A stretch of 64,000 nucleotides of DNA. It comes from a bacterium (GTDB taxonomy: Bacteria; Bacillota_I; Bacilli_A; RF39; UBA660). Each line of letters opens with the position of its first letter. The first letter of the stretch is position 1. A program made the translations under genes and the position numbers. The notes under the pieces are model-generated. The model worked only from the letters and a program-made list of their open reading frames with translations, was not told the DNA's origin and did no database searches. Below, piece by piece: positions 8,151-46,058 of the stretch. The stretch covers positions 149-64,148 of the forward strand of contig CAVIUA010000003.1 of NCBI GenBank assembly GCA_963645945.1, written 5' to 3'.

Positions 8151-9875
8151 TTAGATTATTTCATCAATATCATCTTTTACTTTTTTTTTTTTATGATTGT
8201 TTTTTTTGCTCTTGTAATAATTATTTTTTTGATGTTGATACTTATTTTTATTTTTTTTCTTAGGTGCATTTGTTTTATTGTTTTCAACTTTTACTTCATT
8301 GATAATTACAGGTATGTTTTCATTTTTTTCTTTAACAATTACTTTTTCCGATTCTGCAGGACTTGGTGTATTGTCTTTCAATTCAACATTTTTTACTTCT
8401 TCAGTAACAATGACAGGTTCAATTGTCTTATCTTGCTTAGGTGTATTTAATATTTCATCTATCGTTGGTGAAACATAAGACTTTACCTTTGGTATATTTA
8501 TTTCAATATTACTTGGTGTATCTACTATTTCAGGTATTGTTACTGCAGGTTCTTCTTTAACTTTTTCATTTACAATATCTTTTACTTCATTTACAATATC
8601 TTCATTATCTTCTTGAACTGATTCATTTATAGATAACATATCATTTAACTCATTTGATATATCTATATTTTCATTTTCTTTCTTTTTAAAGATACTTCCA
8701 ATAATAGCAAATTTTGATAATTTTTCTTCAATAGCTTGATTTTTGGCAGCTACTCTTTTAGCTTCTTGTTCTTCTACTTCTTTTCTGACAACTTTAAACT
8801 TATATAATAATTCATCAGAAATAATTATGAATGTACTTATATCATTATCTGTATCTTCACTATATAATATTGGCTTACCTGTTGAATCGTGAGCATCTAA
8901 TAATTCTTCAATTCTAGGTACTTCAATAATTTCATATTTACTTTCATCTATCTTTTCTCCAGACTTACTCGATACTATTGCTCTATCATATTCTCTTAAT
9001 ATACCTCTTACTGTTGATTTATATATATCTTTTTTACTTCTATTAGTTAAGAAATTATAAATAACTATATATAATAGTGCTAAACTTAGTATACCAACAA
9101 TTATACCTAGTACTAAAGCAACTGGTTTCTTTATTTGTGACATATAATTTCTTTCTAATGTACCAGAATTATTTATATCACTTGTATCAATACCTATATT
9201 TATTGTTTGTTCTGACATAGGTATCGCAATTACTAATTTACTTGTTTTATTAAAATCTTCTTTTAGTAGAGAACTTTTGCCTTCTACATCAATTGTAAAT
9301 GTTAATACTAATTTGCTGTTTACTGATAAGGCATATTCTTTTTTAAATGCATTTACATAATTATTATATTCATCGTAGTTAATGCTTATATCTTTATCTA
9401 CTCTAAAGCTTGATCCTGATATTTTTTCTTTTGTATCTTTTAATAAGACACTTGGTTTTTTATATAACACTTTGTTATTATCGTTTGGATCGGATATTAT
9501 TAAATCGGCTGTTACTTTATAATTATATGTATATTCCATTTTTTCTTCTGAATGCATTTCATAAGTAAATGTTGGTACTATATTTTTAATTATACTTGCA
9601 ATATATTGCATATCTTTATCTAGATATTGTTCTTGATAATAATTATTATCTTTTAAATATACTTTGTAATCTATATTACCTAATTCATTATATCCTATAT
9701 ATGATTCAGCTTTTGTATACATTGATCCTTTTAATACTAGAAATGTTAATCCTAACATAATTAATGTTGGTATTAACATATAAAATAGCCATCTCTTAGT
9801 AGTATATGGTTTAATCTCAGTAGGTTTTTTATCTAGTTTTGGATTTTTATTAGGATCCAAATTATTATTTTTCAT
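8151..9875 (-). CDS. DUF5305-like bitopic membrane protein with long Lys/Glu-rich C-terminal tail (fibre locus A)
   Basis: 574 aa with topology TM, ~210-aa ectodomain, TM, cytoplasmic domain. It is a clear paralog of 21021-22115 (DYKVYLKDNNYY..QYIAS..FTYE). The start lies 2 nt after the stop of the upstream peptidase gene. Confidence 0.6.
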   Translation of the reverse strand: MKNNNLDPNKNPKLDKKPTEIKPYTTKRWLFYMLIPTLIMLGLTFLVLKGSMYTKAESYIGYNELGNIDYKVYLKDNNYYQEQYLDKDMQYIASIIKNIVPTFTYEMHSEEKMEYTYNYKVTADLIISDPNDNNKVLYKKPSVLLKDTKEKISGSSFRVDKDISINYDEYNNYVNAFKKEYALSVNSKLVLTFTIDVEGKSSLLKEDFNKTSKLVIAIPMSEQTINIGIDTSDINNSGTLERNYMSQIKKPVALVLGIIVGILSLALLYIVIYNFLTNRSKKDIYKSTVRGILREYDRAIVSSKSGEKIDESKYEIIEVPRIEELLDAHDSTGKPILYSEDTDNDISTFIIISDELLYKFKVVRKEVEEQEAKRVAAKNQAIEEKLSKFAIIGSIFKKKENENIDISNELNDMLSINESVQEDNEDIVNEVKDIVNEKVKEEPAVTIPEIVDTPSNIEINIPKVKSYVSPTIDEILNTPKQDKTIEPVIVTEEVKNVELKDNTPSPAESEKVIVKEKNENIPVIINEVKVENNKTNAPKKKNKNKYQHQKNNYYKSKKNNHKKKKVKDDIDEII

Positions 9876-9877
9876 TA

Positions 9878-18703: not shown

Positions 18704-21031
18704 TTACTTTTTATAGATAGCCTCAAAATGAGTGCCATGATAAATTATTACTTTGTCACCTGGCTGATACATATTGCCATCACCAGTATTGTACCAAGCT
18801 ATAAAATTTGTTTTATTCTTTGGCTCTTTTAATTTATAATAAGTACCTTCTTCTTGCAAATAATCTTCTTTATTTACTACTTCATCATCAGATGTTGTTA
18901 CCATCCAAATCCTTTTACCAGCACTATTTTCATTTGGCTTAAGAATCATTTCATCATTTAATTGAATTTCTAACAAATAGTTTCTAAAAGTATTTAAATC
19001 TAAGTATTTAGATAATAGTTTTCCATCCCCTACCCTTAATCCTTTAAACATATAATAAGGCATAATATCCTTAAATGATGAATAATCATATAAATCTAGT
19101 TTTTCATAATCTCTATTTATCCAGTTTATATTATTACCAAATTCATATAAATTGGATAACATTACATTTCCATCTGTTGTAAGTAGTCCATTCGCAATAA
19201 TATTATAATATCTTGTTGAAGCTATAAAATAATATTCTACATCTTCATCAAAGTTTTCTATATTAGTAACAGTTACATAAGTAATATTATTATTTTCATC
19301 TAATTTAGCTATTTCTGTTCCTATTTTAAAATTATTATTATCAAGTACTGATACAAATTGATTAAGATTTTTACTGAATAAACCATGATTAGTTACAACA
19401 TTCAAAATTGTTCCATCTGAGAATGATATTTTTTTATAATTAGGATTTATTTTTCTTTTTTCAATCCATATAGGATATTCATATGTATATGATCCAGTTT
19501 CATGATTCCATACGAGTAATAAATCATCGTAAGTAATATCTTCTATGTTTTTAGTTTTTCCAGTTGCAAGAGTTATTTTTGTTCCTTTGGCTAAACATCC
19601 TGAGGATTTTGCTGAGGCAGTAATTGTTACGTCTCCTTTTATTTCATTTATTTTTATTACACCAGTTGAAGATGAATATGTATAATCAGTACCGGATGAT
19701 AATGTGTTTCCTGCCATGGTTATTGTAACAGAATCAGGAAGCGTAGTCCATTGTCCTGATGCTGCAAGTGTTGTTGAATAGCTTTGACCAAGGCTAACAG
19801 TATCTGTAGTTGTTGATTTATTATCATGTGTTAAATTTGATAGAGAAAAGGTAATGGTAAACGTCCATTTCATTGCTGTTGTTGCACTCTTTCTAGCATA
19901 TGTAGAGTCTGTTGTTGCTGATGAGGCATAGCTTTCTCCGGTGTTTTCTGCTTCGTCTATTCCATATACAACAGCATAATAACTTCCTTCACTTTTATTT
20001 GTAAATCTATAAGTTGTATCTGAACTATTAGTATGAGCTTCTTCTATTAAATTGCCAGATGAATCATATAATAATATGACATAATCTGTAACAGGTGAAG
20101 CAGTGCTTGCATCATTATTAGTCCATGTAACATCAAATGTTCCATTGGTATTGTTAATATCTAATGATACTGGTCCAATTAAAGGAGGTTCATTATCTTC
20201 TTCATATCCAGTTGTTACATTTGTAGTTATTGCTAGGTTATCAAATGTAAAACTAGTTGTATCATGTTGAAGATAAATTTTCATATCATATTTTGTTTTA
20301 TAATAATTAATATTGGTTTTTTTAGAAACATATACATTTACTTCTTCTTGACTATTTGCTTTTATAGTTAAATTACCTAAAGCATTGCCAGATGAATCTG
20401 TTAAATCAAATTTAGTACTATCTGTTGTTAGTTGATAGGTAACATCTGTATCACCCGAATTTGCAATTTTTATTGTTATAGGTTTTCTTTCAACATTGGT
20501 TAGGTTAACGCTTTCCGTTATTAAATCGGCAGCTACTTTACCTGCATCATCAAAATTAAATGTCATATTTAAATCATAATCTCCAGAGGTTGCTGAATTA
20601 ATGTACCGATATGTTAATTCAAACGTTACACTTTCCCCTGGTAAAAGATATGATCCAGCAGTTAAATTTGATATTTCATAACTTATTATATTTTTTGTTG
20701 TATCTGTTACATTAAATGTTTCACCAGTGTACTTTTGTACTGAATCTGTACCATTTGAAATAGTAACACTATATGTAATAAATGATACTTCAGATGAGGA
20801 AAAAGTTGTTGATACATTAGTAGTTAGTGAAGAATATTCCGGTACTTTAGTCATGTTAACACCATTGGAATCCGTTGAATAAAATTCACTTATAAATAAT
20901 TCATTTAATTTTGTTGAAGAAACACTTCCTGAAACTGATATTGTTGATTGCATAGCAGCATATCCTATATTAAGTAAAAAAAGTAGTAAAAATAAAGATA
21001 TTGCTATGGCATTTTTTTTCTTAATCTTCAT
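18704..21031 (-). CDS. large secreted fibre-associated protein: subunit-like N-terminus, FN3-like region, C-terminal Hint (intein-like) domain plus 154-aa tail
   Basis: 775 aa. Signal/TM then NIGYAAMQSTISVSGSV. FN3-like block (PPLIGPVSLD..WTNNDAS..YYAVVYGIDEAEN). Hint signature from Cys479 (SG-CLAKGTKITLATGKTKNIEDITYDDLLLVW ... VVTNHGLF ... NIIANG). The tail ends in a Listeria/Bacteroides-repeat-like FIAWYNTGDG..FEAIY. Confidence 0.7.
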   Translation of the reverse strand: MKIKKKNAIAISLFLLLFLLNIGYAAMQSTISVSGSVSSTKLNELFISEFYSTDSNGVNMTKVPEYSSLTTNVSTTFSSSEVSFITYSVTISNGTDSVQKYTGETFNVTDTTKNIISYEISNLTAGSYLLPGESVTFELTYRYINSATSGDYDLNMTFNFDDAGKVAADLITESVNLTNVERKPITIKIANSGDTDVTYQLTTDSTKFDLTDSSGNALGNLTIKANSQEEVNVYVSKKTNINYYKTKYDMKIYLQHDTTSFTFDNLAITTNVTTGYEEDNEPPLIGPVSLDINNTNGTFDVTWTNNDASTASPVTDYVILLYDSSGNLIEEAHTNSSDTTYRFTNKSEGSYYAVVYGIDEAENTGESYASSATTDSTYARKSATTAMKWTFTITFSLSNLTHDNKSTTTDTVSLGQSYSTTLAASGQWTTLPDSVTITMAGNTLSSGTDYTYSSSTGVIKINEIKGDVTITASAKSSGCLAKGTKITLATGKTKNIEDITYDDLLLVWNHETGSYTYEYPIWIEKRKINPNYKKISFSDGTILNVVTNHGLFSKNLNQFVSVLDNNNFKIGTEIAKLDENNNITYVTVTNIENFDEDVEYYFIASTRYYNIIANGLLTTDGNVMLSNLYEFGNNINWINRDYEKLDLYDYSSFKDIMPYYMFKGLRVGDGKLLSKYLDLNTFRNYLLEIQLNDEMILKPNENSAGKRIWMVTTSDDEVVNKEDYLQEEGTYYKLKEPKNKTNFIAWYNTGDGNMYQPGDKVIIYHGTHFEAIYKK

Positions 21032-22115
21032 TTTTACCTTCTTCTTTCATAATTCTATTCATTGAATAATAGTATATATATACTAAACCTGAGTTAGTAG
21101 GTACAATAAATGCACTCTTTGTTTTACTTGGTTCTTGACAGAATAATATTGGTGATCCTGATGAGTTTCTTATTTCGAATAAATCTTCAAATTCTTCCAC
21201 TAATACTATTTGGAATTTATTATAACTTAGTTCTGACTGTATTTTTGAGATATATTGACCATAGTTATTAAAGATATCTTTTAATCCTTTATTGTAAATA
21301 GTATAACAGTTCTTAGTCTTTTTAGCATAAATAGTCGTTCTTACAGTTAATACAACAGCTACTATTATTAATATTATACCTAGTGTAAATAGTCTTACAT
21401 CCATGTAACTTGTATCTACACATTCTATTAATTTATCTGTTCCATTATTTAATACATAATTCATATCAACATTAACAGTATTTGTTGTTAAAGGCATGGA
21501 CATAGATATAACCGCATCATCCTTTATATTAGGTTCATATCCTTCACAATTTCCTTTTATACCGATGTGTAATTTTAATGTTAATTTACTATTTGTTCCT
21601 GTTAGATTATATCTTTTAATAAATGCACTTGCTATTGTATTATAGTAGTTATAATCTAAATTAACTGTTTTATTTATTGTAAATGAATTATTTATTGTAC
21701 TTGTTACTGTTTGTTTTGGTAATACAGTATCTACTTTTTGATATAGTTTTTTGTCATTATTATCTAATATATCTAATGTTGATTCTATATAATAATAATA
21801 TGAATAATCTATATCTTCTTTAATAGATAATTCGTATGTAAAGTTTGCTTCTATGTAATTAATTAAGCTTGCTATATACTGATTTCCTTTTCCTAAATAT
21901 GGACCAAAGTAATCATTATCTTTTAAGTATACTTTGTAATCTAAATCACTTTTTTCGTCGTAATGTAAATAATAATTTTTATCTTGATTAAATGAGGCAT
22001 ATAAACTGAATATTGAAGAAACAAATAGTACAGCAATTATAACTATTGATAATTTTATTATTTTGTTTCTTTTTTTTGTTTCTTTGATAATTTTATCAAT
22101 TTGTTTCTTATTCAT
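21021..22115 (-). CDS. DUF5305-like bitopic membrane protein (fibre locus B)
   Basis: 364 aa, paralog of 8151-9875 with the same TM-ectodomain-TM-cytoplasmic layout. Its 3' end overlaps the 775-aa gene start by 11 nt. Confidence 0.6.
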   Translation of the reverse strand: MNKKQIDKIIKETKKRNKIIKLSIVIIAVLFVSSIFSLYASFNQDKNYYLHYDEKSDLDYKVYLKDNDYFGPYLGKGNQYIASLINYIEANFTYELSIKEDIDYSYYYYIESTLDILDNNDKKLYQKVDTVLPKQTVTSTINNSFTINKTVNLDYNYYNTIASAFIKRYNLTGTNSKLTLKLHIGIKGNCEGYEPNIKDDAVISMSMPLTTNTVNVDMNYVLNNGTDKLIECVDTSYMDVRLFTLGIILIIVAVVLTVRTTIYAKKTKNCYTIYNKGLKDIFNNYGQYISKIQSELSYNKFQIVLVEEFEDLFEIRNSSGSPILFCQEPSKTKSAFIVPTNSGLVYIYYYSMNRIMKEEGKNED

Positions 22116-22131
22116 GTTATACCTCCTTTAC

Positions 22132-23265
22132 TTAATTATTAAATAATGATCTAAACCAGATTGCTGGGAATCCTATATATTTAATTCTTTTATGTATTAC
22201 TCCTACAATGTTTTCTTTATAAACGTAACCAGAGTCTGCATATTTATTGTTATCTCCTTTTGTTACATATACGTATTCATCATTAAATACTCCTATTTCT
22301 GTAATTCTATGGATTACATTTTTATCTTTCTTAGCATAAATTATGATATCTCCTATATCCAATTCTTGATCTTTATACTTTTCAAATATAACAGCATCTC
22401 CATAATTTATTGTTCCTGTCATGGAACCTGACCCTATTGCCATAATTCCATATCTAAATGCACAAGATACAAGAGCCGTTGCTAAAGATATGATTATTAA
22501 CAAGATTGTTGTACTTATGCTTAGGCCTTTCTTTTTGCTTTTCCTCATTACTTTTTCAAATTCTACTCTATCAAACATATATGACATTGTAAGATATATT
22601 ATTAATGGTAATGTTATTTTAAATACTGATTTAATTAGAAGATTCATGTTAGGAATTACTGGTATAAAATAATAACTTATTATTGTTATAATTCTATATA
22701 CTGTAATTGCTTTATATCCATATTTAACTGACATTTTGTTATATACTACGTTGTTTACTATACTTGGAAATAGAACTGTACCAAGAAATTCAATTGTTGA
22801 ATCAAGACTTCTTAAGTTTACTGTTGAGCCAAAAATATTTACATCTACTATTACAAAAAAGATTATTGTTAGTAGTTTAAATATTTTTGTATTTCCTTTA
22901 TTTATAGTGAACTGATATCGTAAGAATTCTTGAATTATTATTATTATTGATAATGGTAATACTATTACAAGTATTATGTGTCCACTCATTGGTAAGGAGT
23001 TTTTTGAAAAGTCTGTTAATAAACCAATTACATAATGAATACTTACTTGTATTACTCCAATAAGTGCCATCGTTCCTAGTATTGTATTTTTATTAAATAT
23101 ATTACATTGTCTATATTTAAATATTTTTTTTGATAGTATTAATAGAACGATAAATATTAGTGCTAATTCTATTTTACTATTCATATTTAGCACAAGAAGA
23201 TTAAGAAGGAAAAATATTATGAGGATTGCTAAGTAATAATTTGCTAACTTACGTCTTTTTATCAT
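22132..23265 (-). CDS. polytopic membrane domain fused to SipW-like (S26B) signal peptidase I
   Basis: 377 aa with GSGSM, VIHRI and KGDNN boxes at the C-terminus. N-terminal multi-TM region shares E(I/F)LRY(E/Q), YG, YR(L/I)I and P(I/V)IPN(I/M)N motifs with 9878-11011. Confidence 0.8.
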   Translation of the reverse strand: MIKRRKLANYYLAILIIFFLLNLLVLNMNSKIELALIFIVLLILSKKIFKYRQCNIFNKNTILGTMALIGVIQVSIHYVIGLLTDFSKNSLPMSGHIILVIVLPLSIIIIIQEFLRYQFTINKGNTKIFKLLTIIFFVIVDVNIFGSTVNLRSLDSTIEFLGTVLFPSIVNNVVYNKMSVKYGYKAITVYRIITIISYYFIPVIPNMNLLIKSVFKITLPLIIYLTMSYMFDRVEFEKVMRKSKKKGLSISTTILLIIISLATALVSCAFRYGIMAIGSGSMTGTINYGDAVIFEKYKDQELDIGDIIIYAKKDKNVIHRITEIGVFNDEYVYVTKGDNNKYADSGYVYKENIVGVIHKRIKYIGFPAIWFRSLFNN

Positions 23266-23304: not shown

Positions 23305-23865
23305 TTATTCAATAGCATCACCAGTAGCAGTTACTGTAAATGTTGCTTCAGTTTTAGCTTTTTCTTGATCATTAAAAGCTTTTATTAATTCAACTCTTAC
23401 AGTTACTGTTGTTGTTCCTTCAGGAGCAACGCTTGTTGCATCATCTGCCATTGTAGTAGTAACTTTATAATGTTCAGAATCAGTTATAGCTGATGATACT
23501 TCTGCTGTAATTTTAGCCTTTAGGTCTGTACTTTTATTAATTATTTTAAAAGTTGCTTCTCCATATTCACCAACGTACTTTAAATTAGAAACTTTAATTT
23601 CTGCTACATCTACACTTGTATAACTTGCTTCTACTTTTGTTGGATTTTCAGCATCTGTATTTACTTTTGATTTTGTTGTTCCTGTGTTACTAATGATATC
23701 GCTATTTATATTTGTAAACTGAATATCAAAATCAGTAGTTGCTGTTGCATGACCATTGATTGTTACTTTATCAGTACTTGTTGCTGCATAACCTATACCA
23801 ATAGTTACAAGTAGTAATAGTACTAAGATAAGAAGTCCTTTATTTTTCTTTTTCACTTTTTTCAC
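23305..23865 (-). CDS. secreted fibre-subunit-like protein (divergent, Cys-free)
   Basis: 186 aa with a basic N-terminus and TM then IGIGYAATSTDKVTINGHATAT. The GTG at 23865 abuts AGGAGG; the GTG at 23856 (8-nt spacing) is the more likely start. Confidence 0.5.
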   Translation of the reverse strand: MKKVKKKNKGLLILVLLLLVTIGIGYAATSTDKVTINGHATATTDFDIQFTNINSDIISNTGTTKSKVNTDAENPTKVEASYTSVDVAEIKVSNLKYVGEYGEATFKIINKSTDLKAKITAEVSSAITDSEHYKVTTTMADDATSVAPEGTTTVTVRVELIKAFNDQEKAKTEATFTVTATGDAIE

Positions 23866-24011: not shown

Positions 24012-25406
24012 TTATTTTATAAATTTAAATATTTCTTCTTTGGATGATATTTTTAATTTATCAAAAATTTGTTTCTTATGAAACTTAACAGTATTTTCAC
24101 TAATATCCATACTTATAGCAATTTGTCTAACTGATTCATTATTAAGTAAATGATTACATACTTCTATTTCTTTTTTTGTTAAATTATATTTCATAAACTT
24201 TCTTAAATTTAAATTATCAATATTTGCTTTTGTAGAGTCTTCATCCCATTTATGATTATAAAATGTTGCCATTAAAATTGGAGATATCATTAATAAAATT
24301 AACATTAATAAAAATGATGTTAATATGACTATTTCATTTATTGTAGGATTATCAATTTTATATATTACATTTCCAAATAATGAACCTACACCAGAACCTA
24401 TTATAGCAATTATCAATATATTATATTTTACATATGAATAATTCCAATATTTTTTACTAATAACTCCTAATATATAATACATACAAGTGATTCCCATAGT
24501 TATAGTTAATCCTAAAATGAAAGAGTAAATTGATAAAACAATCTTTTTGTCAGATAGTATTCCTAAAAACATTGAAAATATATATGAACCAAAGATTATG
24601 TTCCATGTTAGACTATTACTCTTTTTAGCGAATTTATATATTATAAAGAAAATTAAACTACCAAGTAAACCTCCAATATTATAATATATTTCAATATTTT
24701 CAGGATAAAGATCATTCATAATTAGTAAAAGTGCACGACCAGTTCCTCTACAGAATAATAAAAATATACAATTTATAATTATAGAAGTATATAAAATTTT
24801 AGTTATCTTTGGAGCATTTTTAGCATACTTATTTTCTTCTACTTTATAATCATTATTATCAAGTCTTTTACTTTGAATATATATCAAAATAAAACCTATT
24901 AATAAAATCAAATAACTAATAATTTTATTTAAACTAAGTGTATTGTTAATAAGAGCAAATAAAGATATTAAAACATTTGAGAATAAACAAGTATATATTT
25001 TTTCAGTATTATTTAAAATATAGACAAAAAAATCTAATGCTCCAACAGAAATGAAGGCAATACTTATTGATATTAGAATAATCAAATATTTTCCTATTAC
25101 AAAATTATTAAATAATAAATATATTCCATATATGAGCAATAAAACAATTCCAGAAATACTTGCATATTGTATATTATTTTTATATTTATCTGGTTTTATT
25201 TTAAATAGTAGAAAAGCTCCTAGAAATGACATTAATGCGTTAATAGTTATAACAATATTTTTGTCAAAAATTAATGAGTCATCAAATTTATTTATCCACC
25301 AGGTAAAGAATGTAATTAATATTGCATAAAATATTGACCAGGTTAGTATGTATGGTATTTTATCTTTACGTATGTTTTTTATATTAGTTACATTTGAATT
25401 AATCAT
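24012..25406 (-). CDS. polytopic membrane protein with C-terminal LuxR/GerE-type HTH
   Basis: 464 aa with ~10-12 TM helices, then LTKKEIEVCNHLLNNESVRQIAISMDISENTVKFHKKQIFDKL. Confidence 0.8.
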   Translation of the reverse strand: MINSNVTNIKNIRKDKIPYILTWSIFYAILITFFTWWINKFDDSLIFDKNIVITINALMSFLGAFLLFKIKPDKYKNNIQYASISGIVLLLIYGIYLLFNNFVIGKYLIILISISIAFISVGALDFFVYILNNTEKIYTCLFSNVLISLFALINNTLSLNKIISYLILLIGFILIYIQSKRLDNNDYKVEENKYAKNAPKITKILYTSIIINCIFLLFCRGTGRALLLIMNDLYPENIEIYYNIGGLLGSLIFFIIYKFAKKSNSLTWNIIFGSYIFSMFLGILSDKKIVLSIYSFILGLTITMGITCMYYILGVISKKYWNYSYVKYNILIIAIIGSGVGSLFGNVIYKIDNPTINEIVILTSFLLMLILLMISPILMATFYNHKWDEDSTKANIDNLNLRKFMKYNLTKKEIEVCNHLLNNESVRQIAISMDISENTVKFHKKQIFDKLKISSKEEIFKFIK

Positions 25407-32530: not shown

Positions 32531-32558
32531 AAAGAAAAAGTTGAATTAATCAACTTTT
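32531..32558 (-). terminator. rho-independent terminator after fibre locus C
   Basis: AAAAGTTGA / TCAACTTTT stem (32536-32544 / 32550-32558) followed on the minus strand by TTTTTCTTTT. It overlaps the stop codon of 32557-34911. Confidence 0.6.
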
Positions 32559-34911
32559 AAGAAATTCTATATGGATCTGTTTTTGTACCTGTACCTGATG
32601 TATAGTTTGATGTTCCTAATATACTAAATGTTACTCTAACTGGTAAGCCATTATAAACTAAGCTGTAACCTATTCCACCGTTAGCATCTATTGTGGCAGC
32701 ATATTGACCATTTCCTCCATTACCATGAGAAATTGTCCATTCTTTTAATCCTAAATAGAGCCAGTTGTTTGCTCTAATAGTTGAATTACTATAAACTGCC
32801 ATGTTTCTACCCCAAGAACCTGAAGATGCACTTAGACCATATTCATAATTATATATGACACCAAACTTTCCTGTAGATGTTATTCCATCTACAATTTCTT
32901 GTGTATATACTGAAGATGCTTTATTAAGTATAGCATTAAAGTAATTTATCTCGGGATGATACCAAGTTGAGTCTACAATTTTACTTTGCCAAGTAGATGA
33001 AAATTGATTAAGAAAATTGACATTTAAGTTTGTTGTTAGAAAAGGTCCATTCCAATCATTTGGTGAAGCATATCCATCAGAATTGTTATAGGCGTATGTT
33101 GCTACATTGGCTTGACTTCCTACATAAGTATCAACAGAAGTACCAGCTGTTGTTCCTATATATGCACCATCCGTACCTAACATTTCTGTTGTAGCATAGT
33201 CTGCGGTTATTAATTTTACATTTCCATTTTCTACTCCAATCATTCTAAATAAGTATTTGTCTGGACATGTTGCTTCATCGGAACCGAAACAAATATAATT
33301 ATTCGGATTAGCTCCTGCGTATCTATAACTTCCATCAGAAATTCCATTAACTTGACTTCCGTCATGATGATATATAAAATCATCACCTTCATCTGATATT
33401 GTTTGAATTGTTTCAGCAAGCGTTTTTTGATTTTGATATGGTGTAGGGTCTACTACGTTCTTTGATTCTATTGTATATGGAGAACTTGCTGTCCCGTCTC
33501 CTTCATTATAATATAAATTGGCTTTTAAATTAATAACTGGTCTATATCCATATTCTCCTGTTACTATTCCGCCTGTTATTTTACCTGATGTATCTACATA
33601 CATAACATTTGCTGATTTTGTTAAGCCAAATAACGCATAGACAAATTCATATGGCGTCATTGTCCAGAAAGCTTGTCCTGTATATAGATAATAATTTGTG
33701 TTATTTGTACTATATCCTCCAGCAAAGTATACTTCGTCCATTGACAATAACGCTACTGGATATTCTAGTTTTTTTGTTCCTGATATTGCTGCTGTTGTAG
33801 TTATATAACTTGTTGATGGACATTCCAATGTTGGTGAACTATTAGCTAAACGAGTTTTACCTGAGAATGTTGCTTCTGAATTATTTGTATAATCACTATA
33901 GGTACCAGATGTTGTACTTATATCATTACAGTAGCCTGCATTATAATCTAAATAATCCGAATAATTTGTTAAGTTGCTTTCATACCAGGTTTTAATAGCA
34001 CTGTATACTTTTGATTGAATTGTTACGCTTTCATAATATTTTACTAATAAGTGTGCTGGTTTGCTTGATAACAATACGTTAGCATCATTATATTTATTTG
34101 TTCCTGGTGATGTTGCGGTTGAAGTTGCGTCTGCTGTTGTACCTTGATATACCAATCGTACAGATCCATCACCATTTATTCTTACTATTCTCCAGTAAAG
34201 ATTGGCAAAGTATACATAGTTATTTTTAACATCTCCACGGAAATAATATGTAGTTCCATCATTATCAGTAGTAGCATACATTCCTTCATCTGTTGTTGAA
34301 GCTTGGGTAAGAGTTGGCGTTCCTTTAGCGCTAATTGCATCGGTTCCACCATTGTCTAATAATACTTTATCTTTTAAATATATGTCTACTACTGGAGGAA
34401 TATATTCTTCAAAGACATATTTTAATTCCAATATGTTAGTATATTCTGAATTAGCTGGTCTTGATACTACTGGTAATACTTTAATAATAAAATCTACTGA
34501 GGTGCCTGGCTCAACAATATCTCCTATTGATAAACCTGATACTAAGTATGAAACGTTTTCTGAATTTGTATTATTTAAAACTATAATATCTTTTAATTCA
34601 TATCTTTTATCCGAATAATTTGTAACTGTTGCTTGATAATCAGCAACTGATGTATCCGATGGAAGGGATGTATAAGTTATTGTCGTATCTTTTGAATAAT
34701 TACAGTTATATGTTTCATAAGCATCATCTACCGTTCTTGACAATTTATTTCCAGTTATTCTAATGTCAGCAGCAATTCTTAGACTCATATCTCCTGATAT
34801 ATTTAATGATGTATTTAGAGCCGAATAACCAATACTAATGGTTAATATAAACAATGCAAAAGACATAATTACTACATTTCTTTTTGAAAAAATTAATTTT
34901 ATGTATTTCAT
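32557..34911 (-). CDS. large secreted fibre-associated/adhesin-like protein (locus C)
   Basis: 784 aa. Signal/TM then SIGYSALNTSLNISGDMSL. An N-terminal subunit-like domain is followed by two modules, each ending in G-x-G-T-x(3,4)-PY-x-I (GDGTASSPYTIES; GTGTKTDPYRIS). Contains YYFRGDVKNNYVYFANLYWRIVRINGDGSVRL. Confidence 0.6.
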   Translation of the reverse strand: MKYIKLIFSKRNVVIMSFALFILTISIGYSALNTSLNISGDMSLRIAADIRITGNKLSRTVDDAYETYNCNYSKDTTITYTSLPSDTSVADYQATVTNYSDKRYELKDIIVLNNTNSENVSYLVSGLSIGDIVEPGTSVDFIIKVLPVVSRPANSEYTNILELKYVFEEYIPPVVDIYLKDKVLLDNGGTDAISAKGTPTLTQASTTDEGMYATTDNDGTTYYFRGDVKNNYVYFANLYWRIVRINGDGSVRLVYQGTTADATSTATSPGTNKYNDANVLLSSKPAHLLVKYYESVTIQSKVYSAIKTWYESNLTNYSDYLDYNAGYCNDISTTSGTYSDYTNNSEATFSGKTRLANSSPTLECPSTSYITTTAAISGTKKLEYPVALLSMDEVYFAGGYSTNNTNYYLYTGQAFWTMTPYEFVYALFGLTKSANVMYVDTSGKITGGIVTGEYGYRPVINLKANLYYNEGDGTASSPYTIESKNVVDPTPYQNQKTLAETIQTISDEGDDFIYHHDGSQVNGISDGSYRYAGANPNNYICFGSDEATCPDKYLFRMIGVENGNVKLITADYATTEMLGTDGAYIGTTAGTSVDTYVGSQANVATYAYNNSDGYASPNDWNGPFLTTNLNVNFLNQFSSTWQSKIVDSTWYHPEINYFNAILNKASSVYTQEIVDGITSTGKFGVIYNYEYGLSASSGSWGRNMAVYSNSTIRANNWLYLGLKEWTISHGNGGNGQYAATIDANGGIGYSLVYNGLPVRVTFSILGTSNYTSGTGTKTDPYRIS

Positions 34912-34930
34912 TGTTTTTCACCTCTTTATT

Positions 34931-35527
34931 TTACATTGTTTGACCATAGTTAATTGTAATATCAAGATTAGATACAGCTACATCATTGTTTGGTAATTCT
35001 TCAGCTGTTATATCATCTTTATAAGTTAGTGTTAATATAAGTGATTTTGATGTTTCTTGATTTAAAATATCTCCTACATTTAAGGTTGTTCCATCAGAAT
35101 AAGTAAGAGTATATGTTAAATGTGAACATACATTATTGGCATCATTTACGGCGTTATCACCTGTTCCTGTACAACTTGGTGTTGATATGTCTAATGAAGT
35201 AATTTTTGCTTTAAATGTCCCTTCATTAGCAACATCAAATGTATAAGAAACAGAGTCTCCTGGTGTTGTAAATTTTACATTATAGCCAGAAAGTGTTGTA
35301 CCTTTTTCATTTATTTCTGGTGCTGTTATTTCTTCAGCAGTTCCAAGTAATGTTGCGGATGATAGGTTTTTAAACTTAATTACCCAGGACGAATGATTAA
35401 CAGTTGCTTCACCATTGATATTTAAGGCATCACTAAAAGAGGCATAACCTACAGTTATTGCTACTGTTGATACAATAAGAGCTACTATTAAAGCTATTTT
35501 ATAGTTAATGCTTTTTCTTCTCATCAT
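34931..35527 (-). CDS. secreted TasA/camelysin-like fibre-subunit candidate
   Basis: 198 aa with VGYASFSDALNINGEATV, the Cys pair PSCTG...VC and C-terminal VSNLDITINYGQ. It aligns along its full length with 11101-11712. RBS AAGGAGAA. Confidence 0.6.
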   Translation of the reverse strand: MMRRKSINYKIALIVALIVSTVAITVGYASFSDALNINGEATVNHSSWVIKFKNLSSATLLGTAEEITAPEINEKGTTLSGYNVKFTTPGDSVSYTFDVANEGTFKAKITSLDISTPSCTGTGDNAVNDANNVCSHLTYTLTYSDGTTLNVGDILNQETSKSLILTLTYKDDITAEELPNNDVAVSNLDITINYGQTM

Positions 35528-35545
35528 AACCCGTTCTCCTTTATA

Positions 35546-36157
35546 TTAATTACAACTTGAACTAGTACTTTGCCTGTATATTACATTAATTGAAAGATTT
35601 GATATCGTTACATCGGCTACTGGTAGTTCCTCTGCTGTTACTTCTTCACTATAACTTAAAAGTACGCGAAATTGATCGGTTGCGTTTGGTTTTAGTATTT
35701 TACCTGTTTCTATTTGATTTCCTGATGTATCAGTTAAGGTATATGTTAAATGTTTGCATACGTTTGCGGCATCATTAGTTGCATTTGTACCTGTACCAGT
35801 ACACACTGGTGTTGGTATTACAATACTTTCTATTTCAGCACAAAACGTACCTTTATTTTCAACATCAACAATATAACCAGCAAAGTCTCCAGGAGCTGTT
35901 AGACTTACACTATAGTTTCCTATAGTTGTTTTATTAGTATCTATTGATGGATGAGTTATTTCTGAGGCAAGTCCATTTAAATAAGCTGTTGATACATTTG
36001 TAAACACTACATTCCAACTAGAACTTTTAACACTAGCTGACCCAGAGATAGTTAGACTTTCACTAAATGAAGCATATCCTATGGCGATTGCTGTTACTAT
36101 TACTATCAATGTTCCAATTACAGTTATTTTTATATTTTGATTTGATCCTCTTCTCAT
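35546..36157 (-). CDS. secreted TasA/camelysin-like fibre-subunit candidate
   Basis: IGYASFSESLTISGSASV, the Cys pair PVCTG...VC and C-terminal ISNLSINVIYRQS. I prefer ATG 36157 (MRRGSNQ, 9 nt after AAGGAGA) to the track start at 36190. Confidence 0.6.
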   Translation of the reverse strand: MRRGSNQNIKITVIGTLIVIVTAIAIGYASFSESLTISGSASVKSSSWNVVFTNVSTAYLNGLASEITHPSIDTNKTTIGNYSVSLTAPGDFAGYIVDVENKGTFCAEIESIVIPTPVCTGTGTNATNDAANVCKHLTYTLTDTSGNQIETGKILKPNATDQFRVLLSYSEEVTAEELPVADVTISNLSINVIYRQSTSSSCN

Positions 36158-36410
36158 ATTGTTCATTCTCCTTGTATTATAATATAACATAAAAATACTA
36201 ATATGTCGATAATTTCATCATAGATGTTAATCCTTTTTTTAAATGTATACACTAATGAAGTTATATTATACCTTAAAAGGAGTACAAGCGATAATAGATA
36301 ATTAAAAACAACTTGAACAAGTTTTAAGAGAAAGAAATAAAAGATTAAAAGCAAGGGTTAATATGATGTGAACCCAAATCGGTAGGCATCTAAAAAAAGC
36401 AAATATAAAA

Positions 36411-41853: not shown

Positions 41854-42716
41854 TTATTCTAACAGAAGTCTTACTGTTCCTCTATCTTCTAACTTTGTCT
41901 TAGCATCTGGTGACTGAGAGACTACTTTTTCACCGGATCCAGAATATTCAACAGTAAAGTTAGAAAGGAGTTTTTTAGCGTCTTTTACATTCTTACCTAC
42001 AACATTTGGAACTTCATACATGATTTTATCAGTCCATTCTAAATCTTTTTCCATTCCTTCTTTTTGTTCTTTTATATCTAAGGCATCAATTATATCTAGT
42101 AATATTCTTCTAGCAATAGGTGTTGTGGTATAACTTGATAAAAGAGCGGTATTTTTAGGATTATCTATCGCAAGATATAGAACTGCTTCTGGATCATTTG
42201 AAGGGACTACAGCCATGAATGACATAATATAATTACCTACTAAGTATCTACCATTTTGGACTTTTTGGGCTGTACCTGTTTTTCCGCCAACACGATATCC
42301 TTCAATATAAGCAGCTTTTCCGCCACCTTTCGCAACAACACTTTCTAGTGCATGTCTCATTATGGCTGATGTTTCACTTGAAATTACTTTTCTAACTTGA
42401 CTTTTTTCTGTTTCTTTTATAATGGTATTTGTTTCTTTTTCAGCAATACTTTTTACGATATAAGGCTTATATAAATAGCCATTATTTACTACAGCTGATA
42501 CAGCTGTTACTTGTTGGATAGGTGTGACACTGACTCCTTGACCGAAAGCTGTTGTTGAAAGTTCAACATTACCTACTTTATCTAATGGAAAGATAATACC
42601 TTGACCTTCTCCATTTAAATCGACACCTGTTTTATTACCAAAGCCAAACTTTTCAATGTAGGAGAATAATTTTTCTTTACCAAGCATTTGTCCTAGTTTT
42701 ACGAATCCTGGGTTGC
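41854..42716 (-). pseudogene. 3' half of split class B penicillin-binding protein gene (transpeptidase C-part + PASTA)
   Basis: Begins ..SNPGFVKLGQMLG, with KTGT (GGKTGTAQ) and a C-terminal PASTA-like domain (VPNVVGKNVKDAKKLL). No plausible native start: an in-frame TAA lies 8 codons upstream of the GTG at 42723. Confidence 0.85.
42713..42716. repeat. 4-bp core (ttgc) identical at both element junctions, left copy
   Basis: Same tetranucleotide as at 53261-53264. The PBP coding sequence ends or resumes at this point on each side. Confidence 0.6.
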
Positions 42717-42760
42717 TGGGCACCGGTTTTACCTCTAAAAAAAATTATTCGACATAATAT

Positions 42761-44344
42761 TTAATTCTCAAAATAAATATTTTTTATACTTCCATCTTTA
42801 AAATATATTTCTAAATTCATTTTATATCTAGTTTCTAATTTAGTAACTATAATTTTTTCTATTAACAAATTCGTATACACTTTTAAATTGTTGTATACAT
42901 CACTTAGTTTTTCTATTTCTAAGTCTATATTTTTTAATCTTTGATGATAATCTTTTTTTGTGTCTAAATTTTTTAATTTAGTTTTTATTTTTAATATTTC
43001 TACATCATTTCTATTAAGTCTATCTTTAAGTTCATCACTAGATATTATATTAGATATATTTAAATTAATAAGTTTATCTCTTTTATTGTTTAATTCTTTT
43101 ATTTGTTCTTCTAAAGATAATTTTAATTTATTATTTGATTTAAAAAACACTTCATTACATAAGGATATAAATTCATTTTTCATTAACAATAAATTTTCAC
43201 TAATATATTCTGTTATTACATCACTTATAACTTTGTCTAATACCTTTTCTTTAATAATTGGAGAATCACAAGATAATACTCCTTCATTTTTATACTTTTT
43301 ACATACCCAAGTAGGATTATTTTTTCTATTACTTCCAGCACATCTAACAAATATTTCATTATGCTGATTACATATTAATTTATTTGTATATTTAGATTCA
43401 TCTACTATTTTTTGATTAGTAGTTATATGAATATTTCTAGAATTATATTTTTTTCTATATAATTCATTTGCTTTATTCCATAATTCTTCTGATACAATTG
43501 GATCAATTAAATCTGTTTTATATATTATTTGTTCATTCTTTGGAATTTTAACTTTTTTATGTGTTTTATAACTTTCTACTCTAGTTAAATTAGCAGTATA
43601 ATATCCTTTATATCTAGGATTAATTAAAAACTTTTTTAAAGTTGTACCAGAATAAGCTTTACCATTTTTATTTTTGTATCCTTTTTCATATAAAACATTA
43701 GATATTTTTTCAAATGAATATTTTCCGGTCGCATATAAATTAAATAATATTTCTATTATAGGTCTTTCTTCTTCATTTATAATCATTCTTCCATTTTTAC
43801 GATAATACCCAGTTAAATTACCACCAATAATTTTTCCATCCTTAATCATTCTTTTTATTCCAAATTTAACTCTTTCAGACAATTTTCTAACTTCGTCCTG
43901 TGCAAGAGATGACATTAAAGCAAGCCTAAATTCACTATCTGGGTAAATTGTATTTATATTATCACTTATAAAAAAAACTACCGTACCATTATTAAGAAGT
44001 TCTTCTGTATATTTGATACTATCTACTACATTACGAGAGAACCTAGATATTTCTTTCGTTACAATTAAATCTAATTTACCTTGTTTCGAGTCTTCTATCA
44101 TCCTTAAAAAATTATCTCTATTTTTAACACTTGTGCCACTTATACCTTCATCAATATATTCACCAACTAAATTCCATTTTTTATTCTCATTTATCATTTC
44201 TCTAAAATAATTAGATTGATTTTCCAAACTATTTAACTGATCATCTTTATCTGTAGACACTCTTGCATAATAACCCACATTCAAATTCATATCAAATATA
44301 GTTTTACCAAGTAATAGTTCACTTCTAGTTTGAAGTACATTCAT
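42761..44344 (-). CDS. large serine recombinase
   Basis: 527 aa. N-terminal resolvase catalytic domain (YARVSTDKDDQLNSLENQ), then a recombinase domain, a Cys-rich zinc-ribbon region (CNQHNEIFVRC..WVCKKY) and a C-terminal coiled coil. Confidence 0.9.
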   Translation of the reverse strand: MNVLQTRSELLLGKTIFDMNLNVGYYARVSTDKDDQLNSLENQSNYFREMINENKKWNLVGEYIDEGISGTSVKNRDNFLRMIEDSKQGKLDLIVTKEISRFSRNVVDSIKYTEELLNNGTVVFFISDNINTIYPDSEFRLALMSSLAQDEVRKLSERVKFGIKRMIKDGKIIGGNLTGYYRKNGRMIINEEERPIIEILFNLYATGKYSFEKISNVLYEKGYKNKNGKAYSGTTLKKFLINPRYKGYYTANLTRVESYKTHKKVKIPKNEQIIYKTDLIDPIVSEELWNKANELYRKKYNSRNIHITTNQKIVDESKYTNKLICNQHNEIFVRCAGSNRKNNPTWVCKKYKNEGVLSCDSPIIKEKVLDKVISDVITEYISENLLLMKNEFISLCNEVFFKSNNKLKLSLEEQIKELNNKRDKLINLNISNIISSDELKDRLNRNDVEILKIKTKLKNLDTKKDYHQRLKNIDLEIEKLSDVYNNLKVYTNLLIEKIIVTKLETRYKMNLEIYFKDGSIKNIYFEN

Positions 44345-44462
44345 TTTTTGTCTCCTTTATTATTTCTTCATTCATAATTTTTAATTCATCAAAACTAATT
44401 ATTTTTTTTTGATATAATTCTTTATTAATTATTAATTTCAATTCTTTAATTATTTCTTTCAT
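44325..44462 (-). CDS. 45-aa ORF overlapping the recombinase start (candidate accessory/directionality factor)
   Basis: MKEIIKELKLIINKELYQKKIISFDELKIMNEEIIKETKNECTSN. RBS GGGAGGT lies 4 nt upstream of ATG 44462. The 3' end overlaps the recombinase ATG by 20 nt. Confidence 0.3.
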   Translation of the reverse strand: MKEIIKELKLIINKELYQKKIISFDELKIMNEEIIKETKNECTSN

Positions 44463-44504
44463 ATTTACCTCCCATTTAATTTTATTATAAATTTAAATAA
44501 ATAT

Positions 44505-44529
44505 GAAAAAAGCAAGAATTAATCTTGCT
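44505..44529 (-). terminator. rho-independent terminator ending the cargo operon
   Basis: AGCAAGA / TCTTGCT stem (44511-44517 / 44523-44529) with a 5-nt loop and a T6 run on the minus strand, downstream of the speD-like gene. Confidence 0.65.
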
Positions 44530-44614
44530 TTTTCTTAGAGTGCATTTTTCTTATGAAAATACACATTTTGGTTCGTAATGCACTTAATTGTGCACTTTAT
44601 ATTTTATTTAACGT

Positions 44615-44977
44615 TTAAGTTGTAATTGGGATGACTCCACGATTAATTGTTCTCATTTTATAATTATTGGTTGAAAAAATATCACACAAATATTTTACCA
44701 CATTCTCAATATTAATATTTGTATCACATAAGAATATATCGATAGCTGCATATCGATATTCTGGCCATGTATGAATTGTAAAATGAGATTCTTTTAATAC
44801 TAATACACCACTAACACCATATGGTTTAAATTGATGAAAACAACTTTTTACAACATTAAAATTTCCAATTTTCCCAGCTTCTATCATCACTTCTTTTATT
44901 TTAGAAACTGATACTAAGTAGTCATTATTACAATCATAAAAGTCTAATAAATAATGTATTCCTAAAATATCATTCAT
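44615..44977 (-). CDS. speD: S-adenosylmethionine decarboxylase proenzyme (small pyruvoyl-dependent SpeD/SpeH type)
   Basis: 120 aa. Self-processing/active-site motif LKESHFTIHTWPEY. The size matches the Bacillus/Thermotoga class. Confidence 0.8.
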   Translation of the reverse strand: MNDILGIHYLLDFYDCNNDYLVSVSKIKEVMIEAGKIGNFNVVKSCFHQFKPYGVSGVLVLKESHFTIHTWPEYRYAAIDIFLCDTNINIENVVKYLCDIFSTNNYKMRTINRGVIPITT

Positions 44978-46058
44978 TATTATTTTCCTCCATAATCATT
45001 TGAAAATAATCTACTGAATAATTCCTAAAAAATTTTTTAGGATCTTCTACCCAATTATTTACTTCTTTCCACAATATATCTATTCCTTTATCTCCATAAC
45101 ATTTTATAAAACTATCATAATTAATAAATGCTCCATTAATATCTTTATAGGCATCATTTTTTAAATATAAACTTTTAGAGAACTTAGCACCAGACCAATC
45201 TAAAATAACTGGTGCGAAAAATCTTATTGGAAATTCATTAAAACCTAATCTAACAAGTCCTTCAGTATGCATTCGCTGAGCCCAAATGCCAGACCAATCT
45301 CCACCATCTAACATAATTGTTAAAGTGTTGTTTTTCTTATCTTCCTCTAGCATCGCTACCCCTTTAGTTAAATCTCTAAATTGAGTATTTATATCCACAT
45401 ATTCTTCATTTTCTTCTGTAACTTTTATCTCATATAAACCATGGATTGGACAATATCCTTTCAAAATTAACTCATTCTTATTATGTTTTTCTTCTAATCT
45501 TTTTATAGTTTTTTTACCAAGACCACACGTTGGACATATTGTCCTAATATGTAAATCTGATGCTGACGGAAATAAAAGTTCTTTAAAATATTCTTTGTCA
45601 TTTACAATATTAATAAGTGATTTTCTTATATATCTATTTTTTTGAAATTCATTATAACTTCTTACAGAATAAGGAATATTAGCCAAAACTGATAATTTTT
45701 CTAAAATCTCATTAAATCTTTTCATATTAATCTGTTCTTTAGATTCTTGTTGATAAAAACTATGTCGTTGATCTTTATAATAAATTTCTTCATTATATTC
45801 TATTGTTTCTGCTGGACTATTTTCCAATTCATCAAATTGAACTTCCGTTTCTACTTTCAAATCATCTCTAATTTTACTCGCTAATGCAAAAGCTGTCATA
45901 AGTGTTGTTATCGTTCCTAGATGCGGACTACTATTAGGTTGTGCCGATGTGTTTATTATTATCTTTTTTTGATTTTTGTACTTATACAAAATTAAATCAC
46001 TAAGTTTATTAGTTACATGAGCAATTCCGATTGGTGGATAAAATACTTCTCTTTTCAT
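44970..46058 (-). CDS. class-I aminoacyl-tRNA-synthetase-like ligase (HIGH/KMSKS)
   Basis: 362 aa with a HIGH-like PHLGT near the N-terminus, a KMSKS-like KFSKS near residue 290 and a Cys/His knuckle CPTCG..CPIHG. It is too short and divergent for a housekeeping aaRS. Confidence 0.5.
   Translation of the reverse strand: MKREVFYPPIGIAHVTNKLSDLILYKYKNQKKIIINTSAQPNSSPHLGTITTLMTAFALASKIRDDLKVETEVQFDELENSPAETIEYNEEIYYKDQRHSFYQQESKEQINMKRFNEILEKLSVLANIPYSVRSYNEFQKNRYIRKSLINIVNDKEYFKELLFPSASDLHIRTICPTCGLGKKTIKRLEEKHNKNELILKGYCPIHGLYEIKVTEENEEYVDINTQFRDLTKGVAMLEEDKKNNTLTIMLDGGDWSGIWAQRMHTEGLVRLGFNEFPIRFFAPVILDWSGAKFSKSLYLKNDAYKDINGAFINYDSFIKCYGDKGIDILWKEVNNWVEDPKKFFRNYSVDYFQMIMEENNNE

Follow-up and report, generated by a model that had tools for sequence, protein, structure and literature searches.

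A Hedgehog-like Hint domain with a conserved C-terminal partner, predicted to process the large subunit of a pilus-type locus

Results

A large protein ending in a Hint domain and a dedicated tail

The DNA analysed here (hereafter the window) is a stretch of 64,000 nucleotides from a bacterium of the RF39 lineage UBA660 (positions 149 to 64,148 of contig CAVIUA010000003.1, assembly GCA_963645945.1), with a G+C content of 26.6%. Its minus strand carries an open reading frame (ORF) for a protein of 775 residues (18704-21031, stop codon at 18704-18706), which we interpret, with a probability of about 0.72, as the large subunit of a pilus-type locus that ends in a Hedgehog-like Hint domain plus a recognition module, the Hint acting at its N-terminal junction only and without splicing. 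From the N-terminus onwards, all on the minus strand, the protein consists of a predicted signal peptide (residues 1-25, ending LLNIGYA before the next Ala; 20957-21031), whose cleavage site was placed by sequence comparison; a passenger of 49 kDa (residues 26-478; 19598-20956), probably made of several Ig-like beta domains according to weak Ig-like Pfam matches; a Hint domain (residues 479-620; 19172-19597); and a C-terminal tail (residues 621-775). An earlier note on this DNA, made from the letters alone, had proposed a Hint at 19169-19597 and a 154-aa tail at 18707-19168, ranges that correspond exactly to residues 479-621 and 622-775. The codon of Cys479 lies at 19595-19597 and that of Gly621 at 19169-19171. 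A protein identical to the product of this ORF was also seen on a Logan contig, flanked by DUF5305 and DUF3137 genes.

Fold of residues 479-620

When the single sequence was scanned against Pfam, it stayed below threshold with PF14890 (24 bits, cut-off 35.8), with the Hedgehog model PF01079 (18-20 bits, precisely 18.2-20.1, cut-off 29.7) and with PF05203 (15-16 bits). The NCBIfam model intein_Nterm gave an E value of 0.14, and a search of the PDB with the single sequence reached at best an E value of 0.1, to an intein. The two families proposed in the earlier note as a check did not recover the domain: the pre-toxin Hint model PF07591 had no match to the 775-aa protein in the Pfam scans, and PF13403 (Hint_2, cut-off 28.4 bits) had none either, with sub-threshold scores in a few relatives (2 of the 64 sequences scanned at an E value of 0.003; 19.3 bits for the relative P0066). 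Recognition of the Hint in the PDB thus required a family profile, the single sequence being insufficient. A homologue search with residues 470-775 as query yielded 63 homologues, and the profile built from the resulting 64 sequences matched the whole BIL2 Hint domain of Tetrahymena BUBL1 (PDB 6Y75/6TMM) with an E value of 1e-7.

An AlphaFold2 model of residues 470-775, calculated with the homologue alignment as input, had a predicted local distance difference test score (pLDDT) of 95.4 and a predicted template modelling score (pTM) of 0.92, the Hint and the tail being modelled as a single compact unit. Compared with known structures by Foldseek, this model matched BIL2 with an E value of 1e-9 and a template modelling (TM) score of 0.79. 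Around 50 Hint structures were matched with a probability of 1.0, among them many inteins, Hedgehog (1AT0/6TYY) and a bacterial intein-like (BIL) domain from Clostridium thermocellum (2LWY); target-normalised TM scores were 0.75-0.89 for compact mini-intein, BIL and Hedgehog entries and 0.47-0.72 for larger inteins. Residues 479-620 are, as the earlier note had it, a Hint (Hedgehog/intein) domain near the C-terminus of the protein.

The alignment of the profile with BIL2 runs from Cys1 to the 'ANG(I/L)L' strand and stops two residues before Asn143 of BIL2. From this register Asp620 (19172-19174), which is followed by Gly621, appears to occupy the position of the terminal Asn of inteins. The last Hint strand in the model, as assigned by DSSP, is L616-T619, and N614 belongs to the internal 'ANG' of block G rather than to the end of the domain. 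The terminal Asn read by the earlier note in 'YYNIIANG' was therefore misplaced.

Conservation of the active site

Residue conservation was counted in an alignment of 123 members over Hint and tail, each representing a cluster at 50% identity. Position 1 of the Hint was Cys in 122/122 members, and the block-B His, corresponding to His549 (19385-19387) and aligned with the 'NH' of BIL2, was found in 123/123. In BIL2 the catalytic His is His69 (PMC8616854). The family therefore has the two features by which N-junction activity is recognised, namely Cys or Ser at position 1 and the block-B His, and as both are invariant the machinery for an N-to-S acyl shift is strictly kept and the domain looks active. 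Cys479 is the sole cysteine among all 775 residues. At the predicted scissile junction Gly478-Cys479 (19595-19600) the residue preceding the Cys is variable in the family (G, T, S, I and others), and the linkers upstream of the Hint are short, variable and of low complexity, resembling a processing site. Asn610 (120/123), Thr618 (114/123) and Asn627 (121/123) were also highly conserved. The earlier note had seen a block-B-like T-x-H in 'VVTNHGLF'; its His holds up as His549, and its Thr does not, as Thr547 is unconserved and the residue three positions before the His, canonically Thr, is Val.

The C-terminal junction showed a different pattern. The residues at the terminal-Asn position across the 123 members were D (81), Y (15), E (9), S (5), F (4) and N (2). 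Among proteins with a Taf-like N-terminus (the classes are described below) it is mostly D, followed by G; in the TasA-like class the junction reads Y-E or F-E, with the terminal residue always Y or F. The penultimate position is T or S, replacing the His of inteins, and the residue after the junction is G, E, P or D, with no Cys, Ser or Thr nucleophile. In the 775-aa protein this junction reads Thr619-Asp620, then Gly621. Judged by these residues, the family lacks what Asn cyclisation and trans-esterification require, and the pattern is of the Hedgehog/BIL-B kind and not that of a splicing intein. As Cys1 and the block-B His are all that is kept, the reaction would activate the carbonyl of Gly478. 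The absence of a terminal Asn, of a Cys, Ser or Thr at +1 and of any insertion in a conserved host protein bears out the non-splicing classification made in the earlier note.

The tail as an obligatory partner of the Hint

A profile of the tail alone was searched against 1.84 billion cluster representatives and found 335 proteins, 206 of them with E values of at most 1e-10. In all 124 full-tail proteins with at least 150 upstream residues the Hint directly preceded the tail (124/124), so that no tail without a Hint was found among those examined, and the full tail was always the extreme C-terminus of the protein. The tail begins with a conserved extension (residues 621-670; 19022-19171), delimited by the alignments and modelled with pLDDT values of 90-98, in which N627, Y629, F631, W637, P658, G664, R666 and D/E669 are conserved. 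The first approximately 50 tail residues are also kept in a distant group whose tails end after 60-90 residues. There follow the remaining helical part (residues 671-700; 18932-19021), assigned by DSSP of the models, and a C-terminal beta domain (residues 701-775; 18707-18931). The tail modelled on its own (pLDDT 89.7) shows an irregular stretch, three helices and the beta domain in this order.

Searches with the tail alone gave no match in Pfam, including Flg_new (PF09479), and Foldseek with the tail-only model gave nothing significant, the best hit being an InlB B-repeat (E value 0.4, probability 0.8). Positions ~108-161 of the tail profile, i.e. the last ~50, matched tandem repeats in other proteins, and those repeat proteins score as Flg_new in Pfam with E values of 1e-77 to 1e-125; no other part of the tail resembles anything else. 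The end of the tail had been described in the earlier note as Listeria/Bacteroides-repeat-like, and this description is supported by the match to the Flg_new repeat proteins, the likeness to InlB being weak.

Mean pairwise identity among members was 48% for the Hint, 28% for the extension plus helices and 39% for the beta domain. The passenger evolves fast, with a mean identity of 32% to its relatives, and in 56 of 59 loci the Hint-tail region was more similar to that of the 775-aa protein than the passenger was (50% vs 32%). By sequence comparison, the tail is a conserved partner of the Hint and not a variable cargo. Together, the Hint (479-620) and the C-terminal region (621-775) probably form a two-part autoprocessing module like that of Hedgehog, the C-terminal region having a predicted role in recognition.

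The locus and its synteny

Upstream of the gene for the 775-aa protein, also on the minus strand, lies a group of four genes. Headed by a membrane-associated LuxR/GerE-type regulator (24012-25406; PF00196), which is kept in two related loci (L035, L068), the group continues with a 186-aa pilin-like protein without a family (23305-23865), a multi-pass membrane protein fused to an archaeal/SipW-type type I signal peptidase (SPase I; 22132-23265; TIGR02228 at 82 bits vs a cut-off of 51.85, and PF10502) and a DUF5305 membrane protein (21021-22115; 44 bits vs a Pfam cut-off of 29), which from score and synteny is a TafG-like accessory of the SPase I. The 186-aa protein was called pilin-like for its signal and first-strand motif, which are as in the 775-aa protein; the motif xG[YF]A...(S/T)x(L/I)x(I/V)xG is common to these two and five further proteins of the window. 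Of the 50 loci with 5 kb or more of upstream DNA, 44 showed the order SPase I, DUF5305, Hint protein, usually preceded at a fixed distance by a gene for a pilin-like protein of ~185 aa, and small homologues of the 186-aa protein hold the same place in related loci. An SPase I gene beside a DUF5305 gene, as found here, characterises donor-strand pilus loci of the Tafi/Abp/TasA type, known from archaeal Tat-fimbriae and from bundling (Abp) and TasA-like fibres, in which a dedicated SPase I and DUF5305 protein (TafD/TafG) lie near small pilins, tip and anchor (PMC11821415, PMC12337348, bioRxiv 10.64898/2026.01.04.697558). The 775-aa protein is thus probably, by its sequence context, the large, adhesin-like subunit of an SPase I/DUF5305-dependent pilus-type locus, in agreement with the fibre association assumed in the earlier note.

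Single-sequence scans against Pfam and NCBIfam assigned no family to the passenger, the tail or the pilin-like proteins, and a PDB search with the passenger found no relative. No sortase or LPXTG signal was found in the window. Immediately downstream of the gene for the Hint protein lies a DUF3137 gene (17461-18465). It is missing from the 92%-identical relative L007, where genes for proteins of 143 aa and 1112 aa follow directly, pointing to a recent insertion or deletion. The 1112-aa protein (13396-16734), which has no family, is 78% identical in L007.

Passenger classes and distribution

Among 105 full-length carriers of the module, sorted by regular expressions on their N-termini with four sequences of the class 'other' reassigned by eye, about 62 had the Taf-like xG[YF]A N-terminus (59 by regular expression), about 14 a TasA-like one (13 by regular expression) and 6 the type IV prepilin motif GFTLxE, five of these being above the Pfam N_methyl cut-off. 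The Hint-tail proteins with the PF07963 prepilin methylation motif above cut-off were P0066, P0090, P0098, P0125 and P0147. These three kinds of N-terminus indicate that the module is a portable C-terminal end-piece on the large subunits of three unrelated fibre systems. Hint-tail proteins of ~500 aa form a second group, encoded in loci with a camelysin/TasA-family protein (Peptidase_M73) and a short SipW, which also encode other proteins with TasA-type N-termini. Loci of this type carry in addition a protein of ~370-380 aa that ends in VPRTGD or NPRTGE, a hydrophobic stretch and a basic tail (L001, 4230-5381; L004, 5161-6276), an ending that constitutes an LPXTG-like sorting signal.

A scan of genomes, one per species, with a trimmed alignment of eight sequences as query detected 68 loci, nearly all in metagenome-assembled genomes (MAGs) of uncultured gut or rumen bacteria labelled Bacilli, Tenericutes, Mycoplasmatota or Erysipelotrichaceae; the seven that were measured had a G+C content of 26-31%. 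Five of the 68 came from Candidatus Saccharibacteria, with a G+C content of 43-50%, and these (L061, L063, L064, L066 and L067) contained the whole cassette of pilin, SPase I, DUF5305 and Hint protein. The occurrence of the cassette in Saccharibacteria and in Bacilli MAGs, with this gap in G+C content, points to either transfer between phyla or an old origin. Identity to the 775-aa protein is 61-62% for the passenger and 50-52% for the Hint-tail of L068 and L019; in L008-L016 the corresponding values are 32-36% and 61-69%. Such uncoupled identities suggest recombination between passenger and module.

Other features of the window

Two further clusters on the minus strand are related to the locus described above. 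The first (8151-12314) is a paralogous locus without a Hint protein, encoding two pilin-like proteins (195 aa and 203 aa), a 389-aa SPase I fusion with 30% identity to the one in the locus of the 775-aa protein, and a DUF5305 protein of 574 aa with a long Lys/Glu-rich C-terminal extension. The second (32557-36190) encodes a 784-aa protein (32557-34911) that shares the signal motif and has a DUF6273 match and no Hint-tail; over its first 140 residues it is similar to the start of the 775-aa protein (28% identity, E value 3e-6). The two pilin-like proteins of this cluster (214 aa and 198 aa) both contain a conserved pair of Cys residues.

A gene for a class B penicillin-binding protein, also on the minus strand, is split (41854-54306). 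Its 5' part (53212-54306) encodes PBP_dimer and positions 2-106 of the Transpeptidase model, and its 3' part (41854-42723) positions 103-298 of that model and PASTA. The ~10.5 kb between the two parts end in a large serine recombinase gene (42761-44344) that abuts the 3' fragment, and their cargo includes an AdoMet decarboxylase, an AlkZ-like glycosylase and an AlaDH-like enzyme. This insert resembles an intervening element of the skin type or else an island that has integrated here.

Discussion

A proposed route of processing

A plausible series of events would begin with export of the 775-aa protein by the Sec pathway, after which the neighbouring SipW/TafD-like peptidase, acting with the DUF5305 protein, would remove the signal peptide near Ala25, as the literature on such loci suggests. 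The Hint would then fold, and Cys479 and His549 would bring about an N-to-S acyl shift at Gly478-Cys479, a step proposed from the invariance of these residues and from Hint chemistry in general. Finally, a nucleophile would resolve the thioester, giving the 49-kDa passenger and a single 34.7-kDa Hint-tail fragment, with the N-terminal pilin-type strand of the passenger staying in or at the fibre after the separation. The direction would thus be the reverse of that suggested in the earlier note, according to which the C-terminal module was released or transferred: it is the N-terminal fibre part that would be released or transferred, and Hint and tail would come off together as one piece, the tail being freed separately only if Asp620 could stand in for Asn.

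Resolution of the thioester by water, which would amount to plain maturation or shedding, seems somewhat better than an even bet, and it is favoured by the fact that hydrolysis is the default outcome for bacterial intein-like domains (PMC5874633, PMC7765530). Attack by an amine or hydroxyl acceptor positioned by the conserved extension, leading to a covalent adduct, falls a little short of even odds. Hedgehog hands its N-extein to cholesterol. Transfer would be favoured by the tail being obligatory and conserved, as in Hedgehog, and by the precedent of BIL2, which hands its N-extein to a lysine amine (PMC8616854). Carried further, the same idea would make the module a built-in, single-use ligase, in which the Gly478 thioester is attacked by an acceptor that the extension and the Flg_new-like domain hold in place; candidate acceptors would be an amine or hydroxyl of peptidoglycan or a lipid, a lysine in a further subunit, or a glycan or protein of the host. 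We put this forward tentatively, as a reading that is possible and rather doubtful. The window encodes FtsW/RodA and MraY, and the host thus makes peptidoglycan, so that an acceptor in the wall is conceivable. On the same grounds, a wall-less host with a sterol or lipid anchor was dropped as the leading idea. The notion of a simple replacement for sortase was weakened by the TasA-like loci in which proteins with an xPRTG motif and a transmembrane segment accompany the Hint-tail protein.

Weighing of alternative explanations

Several points speak against processing of a pilus subunit at the N-junction only, the first being that everything past the assignment of the fold is inference. Moreover, the canonical block-B Thr and block-F Asp are unconserved, so that the activity of the Hint could be weak or regulated, and Asp620 is well kept in the Taf-like class, to which the 775-aa protein belongs. 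As to the fibre, an hhalign comparison of the 186-aa-type neighbours, as donor-strand pilins, with camelysin-like proteins gave a probability of 2.7%, and a profile search with the pilin-like proteins of the window found no link to solved pilins in the PDB. In view of these negative results, the label 'pilus' refers to synteny and to the N-terminal motif.

The conservation of Asp620 bears directly on one alternative, processing at two sites, in which Asp620 would also cyclise in place of Asn and cut Asp620-Gly621, so that the Hint is excised and an 18-kDa tail freed. Asp is found at the terminal position in 81/123 members and in most of the Taf-like class, and is usually followed by Gly. Amitai, Dassa and Pietrokovski are said to have reported (in J Biol Chem, 2004) that inteins ending in Asp can still cleave. 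It is also documented that BIL domains cleave their C-junction without a nucleophile at +1 (PMC5874633, PMC7765530). However, in one third of the family the terminal position is Y, F, E, S or V, and it is always Y or F in the TasA-like class, so cutting at two sites cannot be the conserved function. Furthermore, the penultimate His that helps cyclisation is replaced by Thr or Ser, and Hint and tail are tightly packed in the modelled unit of pTM 0.92. A second, Asp-driven cut is thus possible for the Taf-like class and not family-wide, and as an account of the module we consider it unlikely.

We judge it just as improbable that the Hint is dead and cuts no bond, its fold being retained for a structural or binding role at the adhesin's end. 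The sub-threshold level of every single-sequence Pfam score and the missing block-B Thr and block-F Asp would fit such a loss of activity. Against it, Cys1 and the block-B His never change among the 123 representatives, each from its own 50%-identity cluster, whereas the positions around them do. In addition, the lone cysteine of the protein is placed exactly at the N-terminus of the Hint, and the upstream linkers have the character found at processing sites.

The polymorphic-toxin analogy of the earlier note, in which the Hint would free a C-terminal toxin domain, has in its favour that a large secreted protein carries a Hint close to its C-terminus, and is very improbable on the remaining evidence. 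PF07591 has no match, and the tail is non-polymorphic, being conserved (50% vs 32% for the passenger) and confined to this Hint (124/124), with a recognisable part that is a Flg_new-like surface repeat. Nor is there a conserved downstream gene of the immunity type, since the DUF3137 gene is missing from L007 and from all other loci. A genuine intein splicing the passenger to the tail, to which the weak matches to intein models might point, can be practically dismissed, since the terminal Asn, the penultimate His and the Cys, Ser or Thr at +1 are all missing, the Hint does not interrupt a conserved host protein, no Hint-less tail is found and the Hint-less passenger-type relative of 784 aa simply ends.

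Significance

Cutting and joining of proteins are known activities of Hint domains. To our knowledge, a two-part arrangement of a Hint with a dedicated recognition region is hardly documented outside animals and ciliates, and among the literature searched, a Hint with its own conserved tail on pilus-type proteins is a module not described before. Large subunits of three unrelated pilus types carry it as a conserved C-terminal ending, and its hosts are Saccharibacteria and abundant, uncultured gut Bacilli whose genomes are small. If N-junction processing consisted of cleavage only, it would be a new maturation step for these fibres. If transfer took place, a pilus protein would become covalently anchored, cross-linked or adhesive to the cell or a target without sortase or ATP, as a bacterial counterpart of Hedgehog cholesterolysis and BUBL conjugation; the module would then also be of practical interest as a natural, compact, ATP-free C-terminal ligation tag. 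Cys479, His549 and the predicted 34.7-kDa product also offer a simple biochemical handle on an unstudied pilus system.

Comparison with known systems

Searches of the literature found no paper combining a Hint with TasA, SipW, DUF5305 or pilin, and no curated model or paper covering the tail, the Hint-tail pair or the link to pili; the three papers cited above on DUF5305-linked pilus loci mention neither 'Hint' nor 'intein', as established for two of them by direct word search. The family also falls outside the classes with which it was compared. It has neither the C-terminal residues of class 1 inteins (Asn in 2/123) nor an insertion into a host with an insert-free form, and it does not belong to BIL-A, BIL-B/Hint_2, PT-HINT (PF07591) or the Pfam Hint family PF01079 by the features that define them.

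BIL2 of BUBL1 from Tetrahymena thermophila (6Y75, 6TMM) was the best match of the Hint both by profile and by structure, and shares its Cys1 and catalytic His. In BIL2 the N-junction thioester is resolved by the amine of an outside lysine, without ATP (PMC8616854). BIL2 differs in being eukaryotic and cytoplasmic, in having ubiquitin-like domains on its flanks and in keeping its C-terminal Asn (N143), whereas the Hint of the 775-aa protein is secreted, lacks this Asn, is 21% identical to BIL2 and has its own tail of 155 aa.

Non-splicing Hint domains in variable secreted bacterial proteins are also the hallmark that the module shares with BIL domains of types A and B. Type B (Hint_2) lacks the intein C-terminal motif (PMC7765530), and so does the Hint of the 775-aa protein. 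Type A is defined by a conserved C-terminal His-Asn (PMC7765530), which is missing here, although the model matches the structure 2LWY. Unlike the Hint-tail module, BIL domains of both types have no fixed downstream partner domain and no link to pilus loci.

The Tafi/Abp/TasA loci resemble the present one in their regulator, small pilin-like protein with a Sec signal, multi-pass SPase I, DUF5305 protein and large variable subunit. The anchors described for them are transmembrane segments, SLH or LPXTG, and the likeness to pilins is here one of motif and synteny. With sortase and LPXTG proteins there would be a functional analogy only, as in both cases a surface or pilus protein has its C-terminal carbonyl turned into a thioester that is open to attack by an amine; sortase is a separate, multi-turnover enzyme, whereas the Hint would be a built-in catalyst used once.

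The closest parallel in organisation is the Hog domain of Hedgehog, with its secreted passenger, Gly-Cys junction, Hint acting at the N-junction only and obligatory C-terminal accessory region that ends the protein, in addition to the structural match of the Hint model to 1AT0/6TYY. The differences are that PF01079 scores below its cut-off, that the threonine of the TxxH motif is missing here and that the host is bacterial; moreover, the accessory region has no relation to the one that recognises sterols, is twice as long and has a Flg_new-like beta end. We conclude that the Hint of the 775-aa protein lies within the Hint superfamily and, by analogy, probably works most like a Hog domain.

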